From Thermoguttaceae bacterium (GTDB taxonomy: Bacteria > Planctomycetota > Planctomycetia > Pirellulales > Thermoguttaceae), in contig JAFQOH010000025.1 of assembly GCA_017403345.1 (NCBI GenBank), positions 25,602-89,601 of the forward strand: 64,000 nucleotides of DNA. The letters are read 5' to 3'. Position numbers and translations under genes: made by a program. Numbering within the stretch: the first letter of the stretch is position 1; the number at the start of each line of letters is the position of its first letter. Positions 11,744 to 58,500 of the stretch are shown here, piece after piece. The notes beneath the pieces are model-generated. The model was not told the origin of the DNA, ran no database searches, and saw nothing but the letters and a program-made list of their open reading frames with translations.

Positions 11744-12033
11744 GAATTTCCTCCTGATTTTCAATGGATAATAAAATCTGATGGTATGTGCATGATACAC
11801 CAGAAATAGAATTCTGTCAAGGGATACATAGAGGATGTTTTATTAAGAAATAAAAACAATTCCCAAAAAATAATATTATTTTCTTCTTTTGACGTCTGTG
11901 CCGGTTACTGGCACAGTGTCCATTTCCGCAAGGGAATAAAAAAAGACCTCACGCTGTTGAGTTTCACAGCATGAGGCCTTTTCCGCATGATCCATAGCCA
12001 CGGAGCGCGGCAGACTCTAAAAACGGACTTGGG

Positions 12034-34157: not shown

Positions 34158-34501
34158 TGCGGATTCCTCCTGTTGTTGGCTAAAAAAACTTTCAGGGAAA
34201 AATACTGTCGCCCGTACTCCGGCCTCACCGGAATGCCAGACTCCAAAATTCTTCACAGCCTGACAAATTGGGCAGTTTACAAACTCACCAACAAAAATGC
34301 AAAAAGCGTGTCAATGACAAAATGACAGAAAAAACTCACATTCCAAGACAGAGGGAAATTTAGTTTAAACTAAACACAAAGATGAAACTCAAGCGATGAG
34401 ACAAAATATCAAGATCTAACGTTTTTTGGAGAAAAACTGGAAAAATTTCCCAAAAAAAAGAATCTTTTTTCATTTTATCGATAAAGCTATATTAAAAGCG
34501 C

Positions 34502-34529
34502 TTGACAGAAAAATGGAATGTGGTATACT
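34502..34529 (+). promoter_or_regulatory. Sigma-70-like promoter of the hydrogenase operon
   Basis: TTGACA (34502-34507), 16-nt spacer with an extended -10 TGg, TATACT (34524-34529). Predicts a ~190-nt leader. Confidence 0.5.
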
Positions 34530-34722
34530 AACAAATAAGACAGAGCGTATCGTAGAAGGGCGATGCACACCGTCAGCACACAGTTTTCGTCAGGCATGAA
34601 GATCTGCGGCAAATATGCCCCGCTGAAATGGAAACACCACAGCGGCGCATCCGCAAGTTTCCCCCCGGAAACAAGCCGCAAATTTTTCGCCTTGTTTGGT
34701 TTTTTAGCCACTGGAGTAAAAA

Positions 34723-35235
34723 ATGCAGGAAACGATCGAAAAGACCCAGGAAATGATTGATCATGAAAATGCGATCAAACAGATCTTGGCAAACAACAAC
34801 AACGACCCGAGCCGTCTGATCCCGATTCTTCAGCAGATCCAGGAGATGGACAAATATCTGTCGAAGGAAGCGATCGAACAGGTCGCGGTAGATTTGAATG
34901 TTCCGGTCTCCCACATCTACGGTGTAGCCACATTCTATGCTCACTTTTCGCTGAATCCGAAAGGCAAGCACATCATTCGTCTGTGCGACGGAACTGCGTG
35001 CCACGTGAAGAAGTCGCACGGCATTCTGAACAAACTTTACAGCAAACTCGGTCTGGACAGTGAAAATCACACGACCAAAGACCTGCTTTTCACGATCGAG
35101 ATCGTGAGCTGCCTTGGCGCGTGCGGTCTTGCACCGGTCATGGTTTTGGACGAGCACGTTCACGGTCAGTGCACCCCTGAAAAGGCGGAAGCGCTCATCG
35201 ATGAGATCATCGCTAACGAAAATGCTGCGAACTAA
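34723..35235 (+). CDS. hydC: NuoE-like [2Fe-2S] subunit of NAD(P)-linked [FeFe]-hydrogenase (HydC/HndA)
   Basis: Thioredoxin-like ferredoxin Cys pattern: IRLCDGTACHVKKSHG ... SCLGACGLAPVMVLDE. Confidence 0.9.
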   Translation: MQETIEKTQEMIDHENAIKQILANNNNDPSRLIPILQQIQEMDKYLSKEAIEQVAVDLNVPVSHIYGVATFYAHFSLNPKGKHIIRLCDGTACHVKKSHGILNKLYSKLGLDSENHTTKDLLFTIEIVSCLGACGLAPVMVLDEHVHGQCTPEKAEALIDEIIANENAAN

Positions 35236-46540: not shown

Positions 46541-46704
46541 GAGCAAATTCCTGAAAAAGGTAGGACTAAAGGACAAAAAACAAAATGTCTCCCAATCATT
46601 TTAGCACAGATCTTCCAAAAAGCAAGATGCGGGGGAAAAAATCCTGCCGACTCAACAAAAAAAAGTCAAAATTTCGAGTCTCTAAAATGATTTTGTACCG
46701 GCAC

Positions 46705-46733
46705 TTGACTTCTTCCAGATTTTCCGGTAGAAT
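46705..46733 (+). promoter_or_regulatory. Sigma-70-like promoter candidate for the heparinase-like gene
   Basis: TTGACT (46705-46710), 17-nt spacer, TAGAAT (46728-46733). Confidence 0.45.
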
Positions 46734-50356: not shown

Positions 50357-51529
50357 TTAGCAAAACTGACCAATGAGCCAACAGATCGCAATAAATATTA
50401 TAAAGATAACACAGCCTGTGGCTTCGTTATCGGCCGATGGCGATGTTGCCGGTGCTGTTGCCGGTGCGGTCGGCGGTGCGGTCGGCGGCGGTGTCGTTGC
50501 CGAACCCTGCGCTCCTCCGCCATTCTGTTTGGCGGCCTGATTGATGGTATTTGGATACCCTGTATGTCTGGGACCGGAAGGTCTCTGGATCCTTCCCGGC
50601 TGCGGCAGACCAGCCAACACATTGTACCACTCATCCGGCGTTGGACGTCTTTTCTGGCCTGAGGGATTATTTACCGGATGGGTATCATGGAACGCACGCT
50701 TGAAAAGCTCGCGGATCTCCGCCGACAACGCATTCCAGCGATCCACACAGTGCGGATCGATCAGGGACGGATTCTGCGTGTAAGCAAAAAATCCCAGCTT
50801 CACGCATTCTTCATGACTTGACGGACCGTTTTTATGAGGATACGGCTGAACCATTCCATAAAACATGAACAGATGGAAAAAAAGGTACGCCAGTACATAA
50901 TTTTCTTCATCACACGTTCGTATGCGATTCGGATTCTGTAACCGCTCGGGACTGATATAAGTAGGCAACTGAACGTCGCATTCATGCCCGCCGATCATAA
51001 AACTGTCACTGTCGATGAGAGTAATATGATTGTTTTTTTCATTGAGTATGATATTCTGCGGCTGAAGGTCGCCCACGATAATCGGCCACTCGTTTTTCCC
51101 AATGTTAATATTATGCAGTGCACGGATCGTTTTTGCAATGTTTCTCGCGATATTTAGGATCGCATACTCATCCATCGTTTGGGAATTGTACATCTGAGTA
51201 AACCATTCACTCAGTTTGATCCCGTGGACTCGCGGAACGATATATCCCTGAAACTTATGCTGATAATAAACCGCATTCTGGATCCAGCACACATTGGACG
51301 TGATCTGCGAAAGCCCTGCGTGCATTGCTTCAAATGCCTCGATCTTCTGACGAAGCATATCCCATTTTTCGGGATCTGCTCTTTTATTGGATTTATATAT
51401 TTTCAACAGAAGATGCGATTTGCCCTGTATTTCATAAACGATCCCCTCTCCGCCCTCTGCGACTCGAGGACCGATCTTGTACCGGGTACCGTCCTTAAGA
51501 AAGACATTATTACCTGTTGTTGGAATCAT
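50357..51529 (-). CDS. Tail-anchored Ser/Thr protein kinase-like protein (TerY-P triad kinase)
   Basis: Gly loop AEGGEGIVYEI, Lys in LLLKIYK, catalytic loop IIVGDLQPQNIIL, LIDSDSF (DFG-equivalent) and YISPERL (APE-equivalent). C-terminal TPPPTAPPTAPATAPATSP linker plus TM GCVIFIIFIAICWLIGQFC. Confidence 0.75.
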   Translation of the reverse strand: MIPTTGNNVFLKDGTRYKIGPRVAEGGEGIVYEIQGKSHLLLKIYKSNKRADPEKWDMLRQKIEAFEAMHAGLSQITSNVCWIQNAVYYQHKFQGYIVPRVHGIKLSEWFTQMYNSQTMDEYAILNIARNIAKTIRALHNINIGKNEWPIIVGDLQPQNIILNEKNNHITLIDSDSFMIGGHECDVQLPTYISPERLQNPNRIRTCDEENYVLAYLFFHLFMFYGMVQPYPHKNGPSSHEECVKLGFFAYTQNPSLIDPHCVDRWNALSAEIRELFKRAFHDTHPVNNPSGQKRRPTPDEWYNVLAGLPQPGRIQRPSGPRHTGYPNTINQAAKQNGGGAQGSATTPPPTAPPTAPATAPATSPSADNEATGCVIFIIFIAICWLIGQFC

Positions 51530-51570: not shown

Positions 51571-54054
51571 CTAGAATTCCGAGGGCTTGTCAAATACTTC
51601 AACAGAGGGAGTATACGGTGTCTTTCCAAAATCTTCCACGGGATTTGGAGAGACAGCCGGACTCTGAACACTAGCTCCGGCACCATTCGGTCCCTGACGG
51701 TTAGTCTGATCGGCATTTCCGTTACGATTCAGTCCCTGACCGTTAGCCTGATCGGCATTTCCGTTACGATTCAGTCCCTGACCGTTAGTCTGATCGGCAT
51801 TTCCGGCACCATTCGGTCCCTGACCGTTAGACTGATCGGCATTTCCGTTACGATTCAGTCCCTGACCGTTAGCCTGATCGGCATTTTCAGCACCATTCGG
51901 TCCCCAACCGTTAGTCTGATCGGCATTTTCGGCACCATTCGGTCCCCAACCGTTAGCCTGATCGGCATTTCCGTTACGATTCAGTTCCTGACCGTTAGCC
52001 TGATCGGCATTTCCGTTACGATTCAGTCCCTGACCGTTAGCCTGATCGGCATTTCCGTTACGATTCAGTCCCTGACCGTTAGCCTGATCGGCATTTCCGT
52101 TACGATTCAGTCCCTGACCGTTAGTCTGATCGGCATTTTCGGCACCATTCGGTCCCTGAACGTTAGACTGATCAGCATTTCCGTTACGATTCGGTCCCTG
52201 AACGTTAGACTGATCGGCATTTTCGGCACCATTCGGTCCCTGAACGTTAGACTGATCAGCATTTCCGTTACGATTCGGTCCCTGACCGTTAGCCTGATCG
52301 GCATTTCCGGCTCCATTCAGTTCCCAACCGTAATTCTGACCGCCATCCGATTCCTGAACGCTATCAGGAGCGACTTTTTCGTCATCTTGCGAAACATCTT
52401 CCGAGATCATAGGACTGGGATCACCGCTCTTCGGTTCCGGTGGAATTTTAGGTTCAGAATCAGTTTTCTCGTGACCGAACTCCTGCGTCTCTGCATCTTT
52501 GCCGGTTTTGTGCATCATTTCTTCGATTTTTTTAGAATCTTCACCGTCCGTACTCTCCTTGAACTCCGGAGGCGGCGATTGGAACGCTCCCTTATCCATG
52601 ACCATAGGCCGTAATACAAGATATCCAAAAAAGACAATGAAACTGAGCAGCACGCCGATTATAAAAATGCAAACCATCTCCATACCCCTCTCATTGCTGC
52701 TCGGATCGGAAGTCGGCGTACTTGGATCAGATTTCGGCCTAGCCGGAGCAGAGGTCGGGTGCGTGCCCGAATTGGATGTCAGACGTGTGCCCGAATTGGG
52801 AGTCAGACGCGTGCCCGGATCAGAGGTCGTACGTGTGCCCGGATCGGCGGTCAGGCGCGTACCCAGTATGTCTCGCCCCGAAATCGGTTTCGGATCCGAC
52901 ATTGAAGGCACAGACTGCGTCGTTTTCTTTCGCGGCTCATAAGGGACAGGCTGAAATTCGATCTTCTGTTCCTGCTGCGGCATCATGCTCTTTTTGATAA
53001 GTCCGAGAGTACAGTCGTCAAAGACCTTGATCTCCTGCATCTGTTTGATGGCGTCGATGATTTTTTCATGCGACCTGCGCGGAGTATCCAAATCCGTCAG
53101 CAGCGAGGCAAATAGTTCCGACGTCGACGGTTCAAACGGCACCCACTTCTCGATCAAACACTGTTCCGGACCATCGGAAAACAGCATGAAATCAGAAAGC
53201 CGCTTTTCACGAAATTGCGGCATTTCCGAATGCAGGAGCCTCATTTTTTCGATCGCATTCTCACTCGTGATGAAGGTCGTCGTATTGGAATGCTCACCAT
53301 TGTCGGGAGCAGAAAGCACAAAAGGTTTCCGTTCCCATTCGTCTATGGCGAAAATACCTCCGTCCCCCAGATGCAGCGTGACCCAGCTTCCGTCATCTCC
53401 CACGAGACACGCAACGATCGTGCAGCCGTATTCATTGTACGGACACTCGGTCTGCCCGATGATCGTTCGTTCATTTTCCGAATCCAGAAGCCCTCTCTCA
53501 CGGACCAGCCTCGGCAGCTCCGACTCAACGAAACGCTGCCATTGGGGCAAAAGTACCGTGTAAAGTTTCTGTCTGGCATAATGATCGATCCCCTTGCAGT
53601 TTCCTTTAGACGCGGGCGGCAGTTTTTCTACGATACACGAGCGGCTCCATTCGGAAATAATATTTTTCATTTGGTTTCCCAGAAACGCGCTATAATCATC
53701 AGAGGCAAGATTCCCTATTTTTGTCAGCTCTTCATGAATGCGAAACTTCCACTCATCCGCGAACAGATCGAAAATTGCCTGCCGTAAAGAAGTTTTCGCG
53801 TTCAAAAGCTCACGTTCTGAAAAACGAGAAAAACTATCCGCATTCCTAAAAAGCCATTCCACAACATAACGGCTGGTAATTTCCGCACCGATCTGGCTCC
53901 ACGCACAGCTTCCCCCGCCGTCGCAAACGCACAATGCCGTGTAAGTCCGGCCTCTGATCTTTCGAATTTCCGCATAAGCTGCATCTTCACAGGGAGTATT
54001 ATCTGCAACATGCGATCTTCCCTGAACGGAAGCATAAGATACAATGTGACTCAT
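51571..54054 (-). CDS. PP2C-family phosphatase with central TM helix and long repeat-containing exported tail
   Basis: N-terminal PP2C_2-like motifs SVQGRSHVADNTPCEDAAY, ALCVCDGGGS, TLHLGDGGIFAI, LFSDGPEQ. TM MVCIFIIGVLLSFIVFFGYLVL. Then an acidic segment and 15 x ~14-aa NGNADQANGQGLNR repeats. ATG 54054 is preceded by gaaagga. Confidence 0.75.
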   Translation of the reverse strand: MSHIVSYASVQGRSHVADNTPCEDAAYAEIRKIRGRTYTALCVCDGGGSCAWSQIGAEITSRYVVEWLFRNADSFSRFSERELLNAKTSLRQAIFDLFADEWKFRIHEELTKIGNLASDDYSAFLGNQMKNIISEWSRSCIVEKLPPASKGNCKGIDHYARQKLYTVLLPQWQRFVESELPRLVRERGLLDSENERTIIGQTECPYNEYGCTIVACLVGDDGSWVTLHLGDGGIFAIDEWERKPFVLSAPDNGEHSNTTTFITSENAIEKMRLLHSEMPQFREKRLSDFMLFSDGPEQCLIEKWVPFEPSTSELFASLLTDLDTPRRSHEKIIDAIKQMQEIKVFDDCTLGLIKKSMMPQQEQKIEFQPVPYEPRKKTTQSVPSMSDPKPISGRDILGTRLTADPGTRTTSDPGTRLTPNSGTRLTSNSGTHPTSAPARPKSDPSTPTSDPSSNERGMEMVCIFIIGVLLSFIVFFGYLVLRPMVMDKGAFQSPPPEFKESTDGEDSKKIEEMMHKTGKDAETQEFGHEKTDSEPKIPPEPKSGDPSPMISEDVSQDDEKVAPDSVQESDGGQNYGWELNGAGNADQANGQGPNRNGNADQSNVQGPNGAENADQSNVQGPNRNGNADQSNVQGPNGAENADQTNGQGLNRNGNADQANGQGLNRNGNADQANGQGLNRNGNADQANGQELNRNGNADQANGWGPNGAENADQTNGWGPNGAENADQANGQGLNRNGNADQSNGQGPNGAGNADQTNGQGLNRNGNADQANGQGLNRNGNADQTNRQGPNGAGASVQSPAVSPNPVEDFGKTPYTPSVEVFDKPSEF
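51676..52335 (-). repeat. In-frame 42-bp tandem repeat, ~15 copies
   Basis: Plus-strand unit gtccctgaccgttagcctgatcggcatttccgttacgattca with a few point variants. Fifteen NADQ-containing peptide units were counted in the translation. Confidence 0.9.
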
Positions 54055-54130
54055 GATCTTTCCTTTCAATTCTATTTTTTGTTAAATTCCAGATGATCCG
54101 ACGATCCCAAACCGCCAAATGATACTGAAA

Positions 54131-54286
54131 TCAAAGTTCACTTTTTACGTCAAACGCTCTCAAGAGCATCTCTATACCGATGCGAACCGACCGGCGCCAT
54201 CAAATAGAACCGGAAATATCGATATAAAAGACACGTGGAAGAAATGGACTGCTTCCATAACGGAAACTGCCATTTTCAGAATTCAT
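54131..54286 (-). pseudogene. Collapsed remnant of a second TerY-like vWA gene
   Basis: Minus-strand frame reads MNSENGSFRYGSSPFLPRVFYIDISGSI*WRRSVRIGIEMLLRAFDVKSEL*. Its N-part aligns with the N-terminus of the intact neighbour (GNGPFLPVIFCMDVSGSM). Its C-part aligns with that neighbour's C-terminus (IDMEQLMRAFDVKR*). Both parts are in the same frame, with an in-frame stop at 54200-54202. Confidence 0.6.
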
Positions 54287-54360
54287 TTTTGCCAAACTCT
54301 TTGATCGACATTAGTCCCTCCGATACTCCGAAGAATACCGGAGGTCCAAAATTCAAGCAT

Positions 54361-55053
54361 TTACCGTTTCACATCAAACGCTCTCATGAGCTGTTCCATA
54401 TCGATCTGATGGCCGGCGTCAGTATTCGATCTTGCCGTCGCGCTGGCACTCATCGAGAAGAATTTGAAAAATTCCGCAAAAGAATTCGTATCTTTCAAAG
54501 AAAGAGCGATCCCTTCGGTACTGAAACTCTTGAGAGTTTCCCAATCGACACCGTCGCCAATTCCGATGGGGAACGAAACGAGTTTTCTAGCTTTACAGAG
54601 GGAAATGACCTCGTTGGCCGCATTGCGAACGTCAGTCGCATCTTCCTGCGTGGATTTCATCCCGGTATAGTGTGCGCCGTCCGTAAAAAGGACGATCCAC
54701 GGCTGATAGTAAGTCACGCCGTCACGCTGGTATTCCTTTTTTTTCTCATTGAGGATCTCAAGCGCTTTGTTCACTGCGCCGGCGAGATCCGTACAGCCAT
54801 CGGCTTGAAGAACTGGAAGATTCCAGTTCGACACGGCTTCGAAATCCTGAACGACATGGACATTACTTTCAAACGTAATGACCGCGCCGCGAACGACTTT
54901 ATTCGCCTGTTCATCGCTTTGGACATCCCTGACGAACTGCCGAAAACCATCCTGCATTGCTGCGATATTATGCAGCATGGAGCCAGAAACGTCCATGCAG
55001 AAAATCACAGGAAGAAACGGACCATTGCCTGTTGGGAAAACGAAATCTTGCAT
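54361..55053 (-). CDS. TerY-like von Willebrand factor A domain protein
   Basis: MIDAS DxSxS in LPVIFCMDVSGSM. Later vWA motifs TDLAGAVNKAL and WIVLFTDGAHYTG. ATG 55053 (aaagga upstream) is preferred. The ORF track starts at GTG 55116. Confidence 0.8.
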   Translation of the reverse strand: MQDFVFPTGNGPFLPVIFCMDVSGSMLHNIAAMQDGFRQFVRDVQSDEQANKVVRGAVITFESNVHVVQDFEAVSNWNLPVLQADGCTDLAGAVNKALEILNEKKKEYQRDGVTYYQPWIVLFTDGAHYTGMKSTQEDATDVRNAANEVISLCKARKLVSFPIGIGDGVDWETLKSFSTEGIALSLKDTNSFAEFFKFFSMSASATARSNTDAGHQIDMEQLMRAFDVKR

Positions 55054-55134
55054 GAATCTATCCTTTCTAAAGGTCAGTAGAGTATGAAGAATCAAATTTT
55101 TATCAAATCGATTCACTGGAAATAAATTTTCCCC

Positions 55135-55161
55135 ATTTTACCCCCCCCCCCGAAAAGTCAA
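55135..55161 (-). promoter_or_regulatory. Promoter candidate with a G11 homopolymer forming most of the -35/-10 spacer
   Basis: Minus strand: TTGACT (55161-55156), tttc + 11 G (15-nt spacer, 55155-55141), TAAAAT (55140-55135). Confidence 0.5.
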
Positions 55162-55514
55162 GTACCCCCTATCTTAAATTCTTGAAAATTTTTAAATTTT
55201 AAAATTTCAGAAGATCCCAAGACCATTTTCATACGATTTCTCTGTTTGAAACTTTCGGTTTCCAGGATTTTGTCAGAAAAATCCGGATTTTGCTCTAGGC
55301 GGAATCGGAAATTCTTTCTATACTGTAGTTTTGGGGAGAAGCTGGAGCTTTTCATTTCGAGAACACTTTCGGATCCGAGATTCCTTTAGTATTGGCGCAG
55401 TCGATTTATTTAAAACAGGATCCGCTTAAAAAAACTCCGCTTCAGAGATAAAATTTCATTTTTCACACGGACACAGTCCAAATATTTCAAGCACGGGGAC
55501 GAACCGATTTGCGA

Positions 55515-58500
55515 ATGAAAGCCGTTTTTTTCATTTTGCTCTTTTTCGGATACACCGCTGCCTCTTTTGCAGGCAGTCCGGAGACGGTACGTCTGCGTTT
55601 GCGCTGGGGCGGCATCGAGAGTTCGGCATTCGGTGAAGTTCACTGCGAAAGCGGCTCGATGAGCGCACTGTCTCCGATCTCCATGGATCCAGACTGTCCC
55701 GGCGGCGCGTGGCTCGTGAACGGCAGCGTTCAGATACGTCAATCCGTCACGAAAAAATACAATGGGTTCGACGTGACGGTCCCGTACCTGCCGGACGCCA
55801 ATCTTTTGGTCCAGCTCGGTCCAGAAGCCGATTATTCGTCTGCTGTGCGTTTCGCGATACCGCTTCGTGAGATCATCCGCAGCGGCAAAACAGCTTCGCT
55901 TGCCGAGGATTCCAAATTCCAGTTTTCAGTCAGCCGCGTTCCTGGCGACGACCTCCGGATCCAGATGGACCGCGACAATCTTGTCTTCGCTCCGCGCGAT
56001 ATGTTTCAGTGTACCGTCACACCAGCGCTTTGCTGGGAAGAGCCGGTCCGAGCTGGACATAAAAAAGACCCGGCCCCCAAAAATGAAACCATTCCGCAGG
56101 CGAAGGAGATCGGCGAGCTTGAATTTTCAGTTTACCGCGGCAGAGAGACCTTTTCTGTCCACAGCGGAACGGTCCAGAATGTGCATCTCGACGGCACGAT
56201 GCCGGCTCAGATCCATTTTCCTGTCCCCGAAAATGAAGGCGTCTACGACGTCATTTTAAAACTGCGCCGTAAAACCGGAGGTAAAAATCTTCTTCAAACG
56301 CTGGGAAACACGTTCAGCGGACGAGATGCGAATGAGGAGATCCTTGCGGAACGGCGCATTCAGTTTCTTGTTTTAAATGACACGGTCATTTCCTTTTCTG
56401 ATTCCGGAAATTACGCACTAAAAATGGAGATCGACCCGAGCGTTCCTCAATGGTGGAAAAGTCTCGACCCGGACGTTCTGCGTCAGTTTGGATCCTGGTT
56501 TCCCAACGCAGCCTCCCTTCAGAACAGGAATCGGCGGATCCTCGCAGGCGAAAAGCAAAATTTCATGGAACTGCCTCAGGGTCCCCTTCCAGATACAGAT
56601 CCGGCTTGGGAAGCATTTCCGCTCATCGTCGAAAGTCCATGGATGCCGCACATTCTTGAGATCGAATACCCCGCGAACATGGAGCAGACCTACAGTCTGA
56701 GCATTCTGGAGCCGAACGCAGCAGGCGCGATCGAACCGCCTGGGATCGATTCCGGCATCAACGTCCCGCCGCAGATCGGGATCACAGCACAGACTCCCAT
56801 CCGTCTGGACAGGCATCACATCCTGTTTTGGCCGCAGAGCAAAACACCGATCCTTTTGATGGTGAACCGTCACGCACAAAATTCCGCGTACATCGGCAAG
56901 ATCCGGCTCTACCATGCAGGGAGCCATTTTGCGCCCCAAAAGAGCATTCAGACCGCATCCGGCACACAGGCCCCCCAAACGGTTCCCGACCGTGTTTCCA
57001 AACGTCTCGTTGCGCTTTTGATCAGCAAGCCAATGTTTTCGCAGACATTTTCCGCCACGGAAATGAACAATGAAACGACCGGACAGTGCATCTCCGACTG
57101 GCTCACGTTCTACGAAGGCGGGAAACGGCTCATCGAGTACATGCGGCACGTGGGATTCAATGGTCTGGTACTGTCGGTCTACTCGGACGGAAGCACCATC
57201 TATCCGAGCCGTATCCTCAATCCCACACCGCGCTATGACAATGGAACGTACTTTCCGACAGCGCAGGATCCCGTTCGAAAAGACATCACAGAGATGCTTT
57301 TCCGCATGTTCGACCGCGAAAACCTAAAACTCATCCCCTCCATGGATTTTTCCTCGCCGATCAGCAGTCTGGAAACTGCCGTTTACTTTCCCAACGCAGC
57401 GGAAGTCAGTTCGCTAGGCACGCCCGCCAGCCCGCTGCGATGGGTCAATCACCGCGGCAGGGAACTCATAACACAGCGAAAGTCCCTCAAACACGGCGCT
57501 CCGTACTACAACATCTTGAATCCGACGGTCCAGGAAACCGTTTTGCGCAGCATCGCAGAAGTGGTCCGGCGATACGGACACCATCCATCCTTCGGCGGAC
57601 TTTCACTCCAGCTTCACTCCGACAGTTTCCTCGTTCTTCCAAATCCGCAATGGGGAATGGATCCGGACAGCATCGCGAGCTTCATTCAGGACACCGGCAT
57701 GACTGTCCCCGAGGACTACATGAGCCGCGTCCGTTTTCTGACCTCTGGTCCCGGTGCGAAACAGTGGATCCAGTGGCGCGCGGCACGGATGACCATCTTC
57801 TACCGAAGAGCCGCCGCACTGCTGAGTACCATTCCGAACGCAAAACTTTACCTGAACGGCATGAAGCTCTTTTGCCTGAATGCCCATCCGGAACTCATGC
57901 CTCGACTGGACGGCATCCTTTCCGCCGAAGAGGTCTTTCTCTATTTCGGTTTGGACATGGAGCAGCTGAAACTCGTCCCCAACCTCGTCGTTTCACGGCC
58001 GCAGGAGATCCTCACGAACAAACCGCTCACCAAACAGGCGGGCGACCTTCAGTGGCAGCAGACACCAGGCACGTACCGAATGTTCCAGGACCAAAAGGAA
58101 CCCACGTCACTTTTCCACCACCCGGCAGACCTCCTGCGTCTTACGTCTTTCGATTCCGCAAGTCCCTTCAAGCCGACTTTTACGTGGATGGCGACGACCT
58201 ATGCGCAAACGACTCCGGAGGCTCGCCGACCATACGCGGAATCCCTCGCCATGCTTGACGCCTTCACCATCATGGAAGGGGGCTGGAATCCCGTTTTCGG
58301 CAAGGAAGAAGCTCTTCGCGAGACCATTTCGATCCTTTCACAGCTGCCGGCCGTTCATTTCAATTCTGCGATGAACACGACCTCCGAAACACCGCATTCC
58401 GCCTCCAGGATCGTGATATTCCGCTCCTGTTCGCAGCATGGAACGAATTACGCGTATGCCGTGAATACGACCCCATTCACAGCCATAGGGAAAGTTTACG

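Follow-up and report, generated by a model that had tools for sequence, protein, structure and literature searches.

An unbroken G11 tract in a predicted promoter spacer of a planctomycete vWA-PP2C-kinase cassette: a possible switch, found at a single length in one clone

Promoter activity drops steeply once the spacer between the -35 and -10 hexamers is shorter than 16-17 bp, and an unbroken run such as G11 is intrinsically slippage-prone. In Bordetella, the length of poly-C tracts in the promoter regions of the fim genes tunes transcription, while expression of neisserial porA is reportedly graded across G11, G10 and G9 tracts, which give spacers of 17, 16 and 15 bp. At Neisseria fetA (frpB), porA and opc a G/C homopolymer of about 9-14 nt lies inside a sigma-70-type spacer and sets the spacing of the hexamers (PMC5320596, whose references include, by title, van der Ende 1995). 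Among six gonococcal genomes the fetA tract ranges from C10 to C14 (PMC5320596, Table 1), and phase variation is usually diagnosed in silico by repeat numbers that vary from strain to strain (PMC5084427). The TA repeats of Haemophilus influenzae hifA/hifB are represented by the title of van Ham 1993, as cited in PMC5084427. PMC11090510 and PMC4978471 summarise the TerY-P triad of Anantharaman et al. 2012, and PMC11090510 also covers the TerY-P-like defence module that Gao et al. 2020 described; the accounts of the triad given in PMC11090510 and PMC4978471 contain no phase-variable promoter for it.

The locus analysed here lies in the 64-kb stretch of Thermoguttaceae DNA presented above, which we call the window throughout. 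Its features are as follows.

55156..55161, minus strand: -35-like hexamer TTGACT, preceded by a C at 55162; CTTGAC is common to three other intergenic promoter-like sites
55141..55155, minus strand: spacer of 15 nt, TTTC plus unbroken G11; in sister alleles TTTC plus GAGGGGGCGGGG or GAGGAGGCGGGG, 16 nt
55135..55140, minus strand: -10-like hexamer TAAAAT, followed by the G-rich GGGG (55134-55131)
54361..55053, minus strand: vWA gene, TerY/YegL-like, 230 aa, first of the triad, with MIDAS motif DVSGS
54055..54360, minus strand: non-coding gap of 306 nt between vWA and PP2C, with no Rfam family
51571..54054, minus strand: PP2C_2 phosphatase, 827 aa from ATG, containing a hydrophobic segment and ending in a repeat-rich C-terminal region
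51685-52309, minus strand: tandem array of 42-nt units in the PP2C C-terminus, 14.9 copies, 89% match
50357..51529, minus strand: Ser/Thr protein kinase of 390 aa (linker rich in Pro/Thr/Ala, C-terminal end hydrophobic)

Read on the minus strand, TTGACT (55161-55156) is followed by TTTC (55155-55152), G11 (55151-55141) and TAAAAT (55140-55135), within the wider context GATAGGGGGTAC-TTGACT-TTTC-GGGGGGGGGGG-TAAAAT-GGGGAAAATTT. Recounting the spacer (TTTC plus G11) gives 15 nt, in agreement with the original prediction as to the hexamers, the tract between them and its length. The hexamers agree with TTGACA/TATAAT at 10 of 12 positions, and between them lies an unbroken run longer than the roughly 8 nt by which a promoter-spacer homopolymer is recognised; the spacer of the window allele, at 15 nt, falls outside the 16-18 nt of sigma-70-type promoters. 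TAAAAT lies 82 nt upstream of the vWA start codon (ATG at 55053-55051), ahead of which AAAGGA is found at 55066-55061, and transcription is predicted to start near 55128. On the plus strand, a GHL10-family glycosidase gene diverges from 55515.

This layout matches the fetA/porA class (PMC5320596), so that the architecture had been fairly likened to the classic phase-variable promoters of Neisseria: as at fetA, porA and opc, a G/C homopolymer in a sigma-70-type spacer sets the distance between the hexamers. Unlike in Neisseria, where tract lengths differ from strain to strain and inside a single culture and where dozens of such loci occur per genome, the length here is constant in nine contigs of one clone, the tract is the only one in the 64-kb window, and the genes behind it encode a cytoplasmic/membrane signalling triad and not an outer-membrane protein. 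With hifA/hifB and Bordetella fim the locus would share the principle that repeat length in the promoter region tunes transcription, whereas those systems differ in repeat type and in activator dependence, control fimbriae and have had their switching demonstrated.

The sequence pair TTGACT/TAAAAT is probably a real sigma-70-type promoter of this genome, as suggested by pattern counts over the window. TTGACT-N14-19-TANAAT has two matches against 0.11 expected, and CTTGACW-N15-17-TANNNT has four against 0.20 expected, a number reached in 0 of 100 shuffles. All four of the latter matches are intergenic, with spacers of 17, 16, 17 and, at the vWA site, 15 nt; the other three are listed here.

11792-11821, minus strand: CTTGACW-N16/17-TANNNT site, intergenic
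34501-34529, plus strand: CTTGACW-N16/17-TANNNT site, intergenic
46704-46733, plus strand: CTTGACW-N16/17-TANNNT site, intergenic

The second copy of the stricter pattern, CACTTGACTT-N-TAGAAT, lies 130 nt upstream of a heparinase-like gene, and this site (TTGACT-17-TAGAAT, with a 17-nt spacer) has ACTTGACTT in common with the vWA site. The four enriched intergenic matches indicate that the genome uses a sigma-70-like promoter type with a CTTGAC -35 box, a set to which the vWA site would belong, apart from its short spacer. Since our default promoter scan accepts spacers of 16-18 nt, it missed the window allele with its 15 nt; in the sister allele B (see below) the best site of the same scan is TTGACT-16-TAAAAT, with 10 of 12 positions. 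The site at 34501 faces a crude ORF call on the opposite strand (34573-35163), where the gene model is provisional.

To compare spacer alleles across assemblies, we gathered contigs by exact-protein look-ups with three forms of the vWA protein (that of the window and two near-identical variants) and with the GHL10 neighbour (the look-up with protein P0013 gave the same loci as the window protein and hence an identical sequence). In total, 24 contigs span the spacer or break beside it, and the spanning ones carry three alleles.

Allele A: TTTC+G11, 15-nt spacer; nine contigs (L001-L005, L007-L009, L155) and the window
Allele B: TTTC+GAGGGGGCGGGG, 16-nt spacer; 12 contigs (L011, L012, L015-L024)
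Allele C: TTTC+GAGGAGGCGGGG, 16-nt spacer; L006 only

While the hexamers are identical in alleles A, B and C, the stretch that corresponds to the tract is interrupted and 12 nt long in the 13 contigs with allele B or C, and as such should not slip readily. Allele A is exactly G11 in all nine contigs, which come from at least three assembly pipelines. Four of the nine match the window at every position of the 4.6-kb alignment, and in six the stretch that begins at the vWA ATG is identical to that of the window as far as the PP2C repeat array or the end of the contig; this near-total identity points to one clone seen in several assemblies. The tract had been called likely phase-variable, a claim that needs variability in length, and a comparison of tract length across metagenomes had been proposed as a check. 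That comparison speaks against the claim: a single length, G11, was found in 9/9 contigs of the clone, the sisters carry an interrupted stretch, and the sole length difference (11 versus 12 nt) separates alleles that are distinguished by substitutions as well. Minority tract lengths are hidden in such consensus contigs, and those with G11 maybe come from few studies or animals, which makes their identical length weaker evidence than its appearance suggests.

Poly-G artefacts are known in two-colour Illumina data, and two contigs from other samples do have an end close to the tract: the first base of L010 is the G of G-TAAAAT (~55141), and L156 stops 14 nt short of the run (~55166). A sequencing or assembly artefact is nevertheless scarcely credible as the origin of G11, since the same tract and flanks stand mid-contig in nine contigs from different assemblers and the tract is linked to other haplotype-defining substitutions; the identical G11 across assemblers and these linked substitutions effectively refute this explanation. 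We also considered the L010 and L156 breaks as signs of length heterogeneity and rejected them as such, the break points being off the positions where a G11/G12 de Bruijn branch would fall. The two breaks are ambiguous: they are best treated as coverage problems and uninformative, with poly-G coverage loss and heterogeneity both possible as the cause.

The fixed differences between the G11 clone and its sisters are concentrated around the promoter.

55084..55247, minus strand: divergent promoter/5'UTR patch, 164 nt, holding all fixed differences between clone and sisters

These fixed differences are at 55247, 55164, 55150, 55145, 55131, 55110, 55096 and 55084, as scored in nine sequences over 4.6 kb and in 21 contigs over ~1.6 kb. 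Across the 4.6-kb alignment, private changes of the G11 clone are confined to 55084-55247, so that a divergence of ~5% over 164 nt stands against a private divergence of 0% elsewhere; the rough chance of eight changes clustering in this way is ~7e-11. Leaving the patch aside, 22-28 sites separate the three non-A strains from one another and 12-19 separate them from A, which places clone A close to the common form. The patch looks like a short recombination import, a local burst of change or the result of local selection on the regulatory region. Two clone-specific indels within it (~55096 and ~55084) create a weak second promoter-like site, TTGATA-16-TACTCT (55079-55106, minus strand), ~25 nt ahead of the start codon of vWA; in this form it is absent from the sister allele. 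The site could compensate for a weakened main promoter.

On the most parsimonious reading of the three alleles, the interrupted 16-nt spacer is ancestral and G11 is derived and clone-specific. Going from allele B to G11 needs an A-to-G change, a C-to-G change and the loss of one base, for instance through a G12 intermediate that then slipped once, or along some comparable path. The direction is a parsimony argument made with no alignable outgroup, and either allele could have moved between strains by recombination. As an outgroup for the spacer we tried L013/L014, a relative with 51% identity, and set it aside: ACTTGA is present upstream, and a convincing -10 at a usable distance is absent.

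Taken together, we put at about one half the probability that G11 is a fixed, clone-specific promoter-down allele with latent switching potential, perhaps newly born, and not an established contingency locus. Under this reading, TTGACT/TAAAAT would be a sigma-70-type promoter, served by the housekeeping sigma factor, upstream of the TerY-P-like vWA-PP2C-kinase cassette; within the patch, GAGGGGGCGGGG (12 nt, 16-nt spacer) would have been replaced by the unbroken G11 (15-nt spacer). Relative to the sisters the hexamers would thereby have moved together by one base, and relative to the three remaining sites of the same promoter type in the window by one or two; the shorter spacer would most likely lower the transcription of at least vWA. 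Slippage within G11 would then give rise to G10 and G12 variants at some rate, G12 restoring the sister spacing. It had been proposed that one or two added G would bring the spacer to an optimal 16-17 nt. This holds in so far as one G gives 16 nt, and since the sisters have a 16-nt spacer at the same promoter, a single added G would provide a spacing that is used elsewhere; the three other sites in the window, for their part, have 16-17 nt. That the promoter is used, that 15 nt has a different effect from 16 nt and that the change ran in the direction given, we infer from the sequences.

The patch may also be read as neutral strain polymorphism that arose by recombination or drift, with the real promoter elsewhere or with 15 nt tolerated by RNA polymerase. 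The resemblance of the patch to an import (~5% over 164 nt against 0% private divergence elsewhere) would fit this, as would the clone-specific indels that create TTGATA-16-TACTCT, and many genes in the window are without a good sigma-70-type match, from which it follows that promoter rules in this organism are poorly known. We nonetheless consider neutrality unlikely, given that the motif is enriched with its four copies all intergenic, that the hexamers are the same in three alleles that otherwise differ in the spacer, and that the other three sites hold to spacers of 16-17 nt.

An effect of the tract that is independent of spacer length would be another route to a phenotype: G11 might form a G-quadruplex, or a site for a G-run regulator, over the -10 region. 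The canonical quadruplex pattern G3-N1-G3-N1-G3-N6-G4 on the non-template strand fits the G11 allele only, the common sister allele needing a 15-nt loop and the L006 allele giving no match. This same restriction to one clone, with the motif not conserved in the sisters, counts against the idea, for which both the structure and the binding factor are putative, and we regard it as highly improbable.

Returning to the promoter-down allele with latent switching potential, its tract is an outlier in its surroundings. G11 is the sole homopolymer of at least 10 nt in the 64-kb window, the next longest runs being A9 and C7, and the claim that it is the only long homopolymer there is thus confirmed. 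Base composition predicts ~0.03 C11 and ~0.01 G11 runs per 64 kb, and a G/C run of at least 11 was reached in 2% of first-order Markov simulations (n=200). Shorter G/C runs, of at least 6 nt, are under-represented over the whole window (9 observed against 19.3 +/- 4.7 expected under the first-order Markov model, about half), which makes G11 stand out more. The G11 tract is not a chance feature. As for the several hypermutable repeats that a genome relying on such switches may carry, the window, covering only 64 kb of the genome, holds one tract and few G/C runs of at least 6 nt, and no second candidate repeat of the promoter-switch kind was found in it.

An outlier of this kind in a window that avoids G/C runs would fit a true contingency locus, at which slippage between G11 and G12/G13 at high frequency toggles the triad in part of the population. 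In keeping with this, the architecture is of the Neisseria fetA/porA type (PMC5320596), the allele is exactly one base below the sister spacer, as after a single slippage step from G12, two contig breaks (L010, L156) adjoin the tract, and TerY-P-like modules are reported as defence, a gene class that is often phase-variable (PMC11090510). Moreover, a favoured 'low' state might dominate consensus contigs everywhere. What weighs against such a locus is, above all, that the tract is G11 in nine of nine clone contigs versus C10 to C14 for fetA in six gonococcal genomes, together with the interrupted stretch in the sisters and the lack of a second such repeat in 64 kb.

The survey of relatives weighs on the same side. 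Alignment-based searching of genomes returned relatives of 40% identity or less, which were used for the homopolymer survey only, and a vWA-protein search of species-representative genomes did not find the locus. The 29 vWA relatives surveyed come from named genomes across many phyla, a goat-colon Thermoguttaceae, a Helicobacteraceae and a Neisseria genome among them, and none has a G/C run of at least 7 or A/T run of at least 9 within 500 nt upstream; nor is there a homopolymer upstream of the triad in four metagenome relatives, namely the L013/L014 relative and three more distant triads. Scanning metagenomes for the pattern CTTGACTTTTC-N6-22-TAAAATGGG proved too unspecific to add to this survey: it gave at least 120 unrelated matches, none of them G-rich among the matches listed. 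Finally, a full-text literature search combining Planctomycetes with phase variation or homopolymeric tracts returned no relevant paper, and hence none on repeat-mediated phase variation in this group. An established contingency locus seems to us doubtful, if possible. Rather unlikely, in our estimate, is the version in which the locus is newly born, the patch having made G11 in one clone and slippage now toggling the triad among 15-, 16- and 17-nt spacers.

Considered as a whole, the proposed phase switch keeps its site in the spacer, the short 15-nt spacing and the restoration by one added G, and it loses ground on length variability, on the relatives and on the second repeat; judged from the DNA, G11 is a possible on/off switch and not a demonstrated one. 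The mechanism is of a known kind, and the phylum, if the switch is real, an unusual one for it. Should switching be true, promoter-spacer phase variation, known from a handful of host-adapted pathogens, would reach an uncultured planctomycete of the gut, and the mechanism would be tied to a TerY-P-like signalling/defence triad. If, more specifically, the locus is newly born, it would give Planctomycetota their first described case of repeat-mediated phase variation, and it would stand beside its non-switching ancestor allele. The natural allele pair, a slippable G11 and an interrupted 16-nt spacer in near-identical flanks, would in that case offer a clean test of how a switch originates. If there is no switching, the locus is an ordinary strain-level promoter polymorphism, its main lesson being that phase variation needs more evidence than a spacer homopolymer.

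The cassette downstream is the vWA-PP2C-kinase triad that had been described for it: Pfam finds vWA (VWA/VWA_2), PP2C_2 and a protein kinase, the last with a Pkinase match of 29.7 bits, below the Pfam cut-off of 31.7. The DVSGS motif is invariant in the alignment of vWA proteins, and a relative of the vWA protein is named 'YegL' by JGI. As in the TerY-P triad and in E. coli yegL-yegK-yegI, a vWA protein with MIDAS, a PP2C phosphatase and a Ser/Thr kinase (here with its below-cut-off match) are encoded together in one cluster, and relatives keep the triad together in the order vWA-PP2C-kinase or kinase-vWA-PP2C. Unlike in the TerY-P types, the PP2C has a long repeat-rich C-terminus, and the kinase is without a recognised C-terminal zinc ribbon (as in the classic type) or OB fold (as in the Gao defence type): Pfam finds Pkinase only, followed by a low-complexity linker and then a hydrophobic tail. 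PADLOC gave no match for vWA or PP2C and generic kinase matches only for the kinase, while NCBIfam has no specific family for the triad. With neither zinc ribbon nor OB fold and with no PADLOC match for vWA or PP2C, a defence role is only a lead.

How far the tract promoter reaches into the cassette is a separate matter. Control of the whole cassette by it is unproven, and both the 306-nt gap between vWA and PP2C and a hairpin in the sister gap stand against taking it as given. This terminator-like hairpin was called in the gap of the sister allele (L015 3783-3807) and not in that of the window, the two gaps differing by one base, at 54250. The gap of 306 nt has a counterpart of ~350 nt in the 51% relative L013; in more distant relatives the junction measures 16-28 nt or the genes overlap. 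An Rfam search of 53900-55700 returned a chance-level snoRNA match only, and with no real match there the 5'UTR and the vWA-PP2C gap hold no known RNA element.

Identical vWA proteins are labelled by NCBI as belonging to Thermoguttaceae or Planctomycetaceae metagenome-assembled genomes, and from the sample names in the record labels alone the samples would appear to be ruminant-gut metagenomes.

The cassette proteins, the vWA core excepted, are rich in low-complexity and potentially length-variable segments. In-frame tandem units of 12 nt are found in the Pro/Thr/Ala-rich linker of the kinase (50444-50488) and units of 24/48 nt in the linker of PP2C (52743-52864), while the 42-nt array of PP2C encodes NADQxNGQGxNRNG-like units. 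In otherwise identical assemblies of the clone, PP2C is 827, 813, 715 or 687 aa long, the steps being exact multiples of 14 aa; this spread reflects either true copy-number variation or the collapse of repeats in short-read assemblies.
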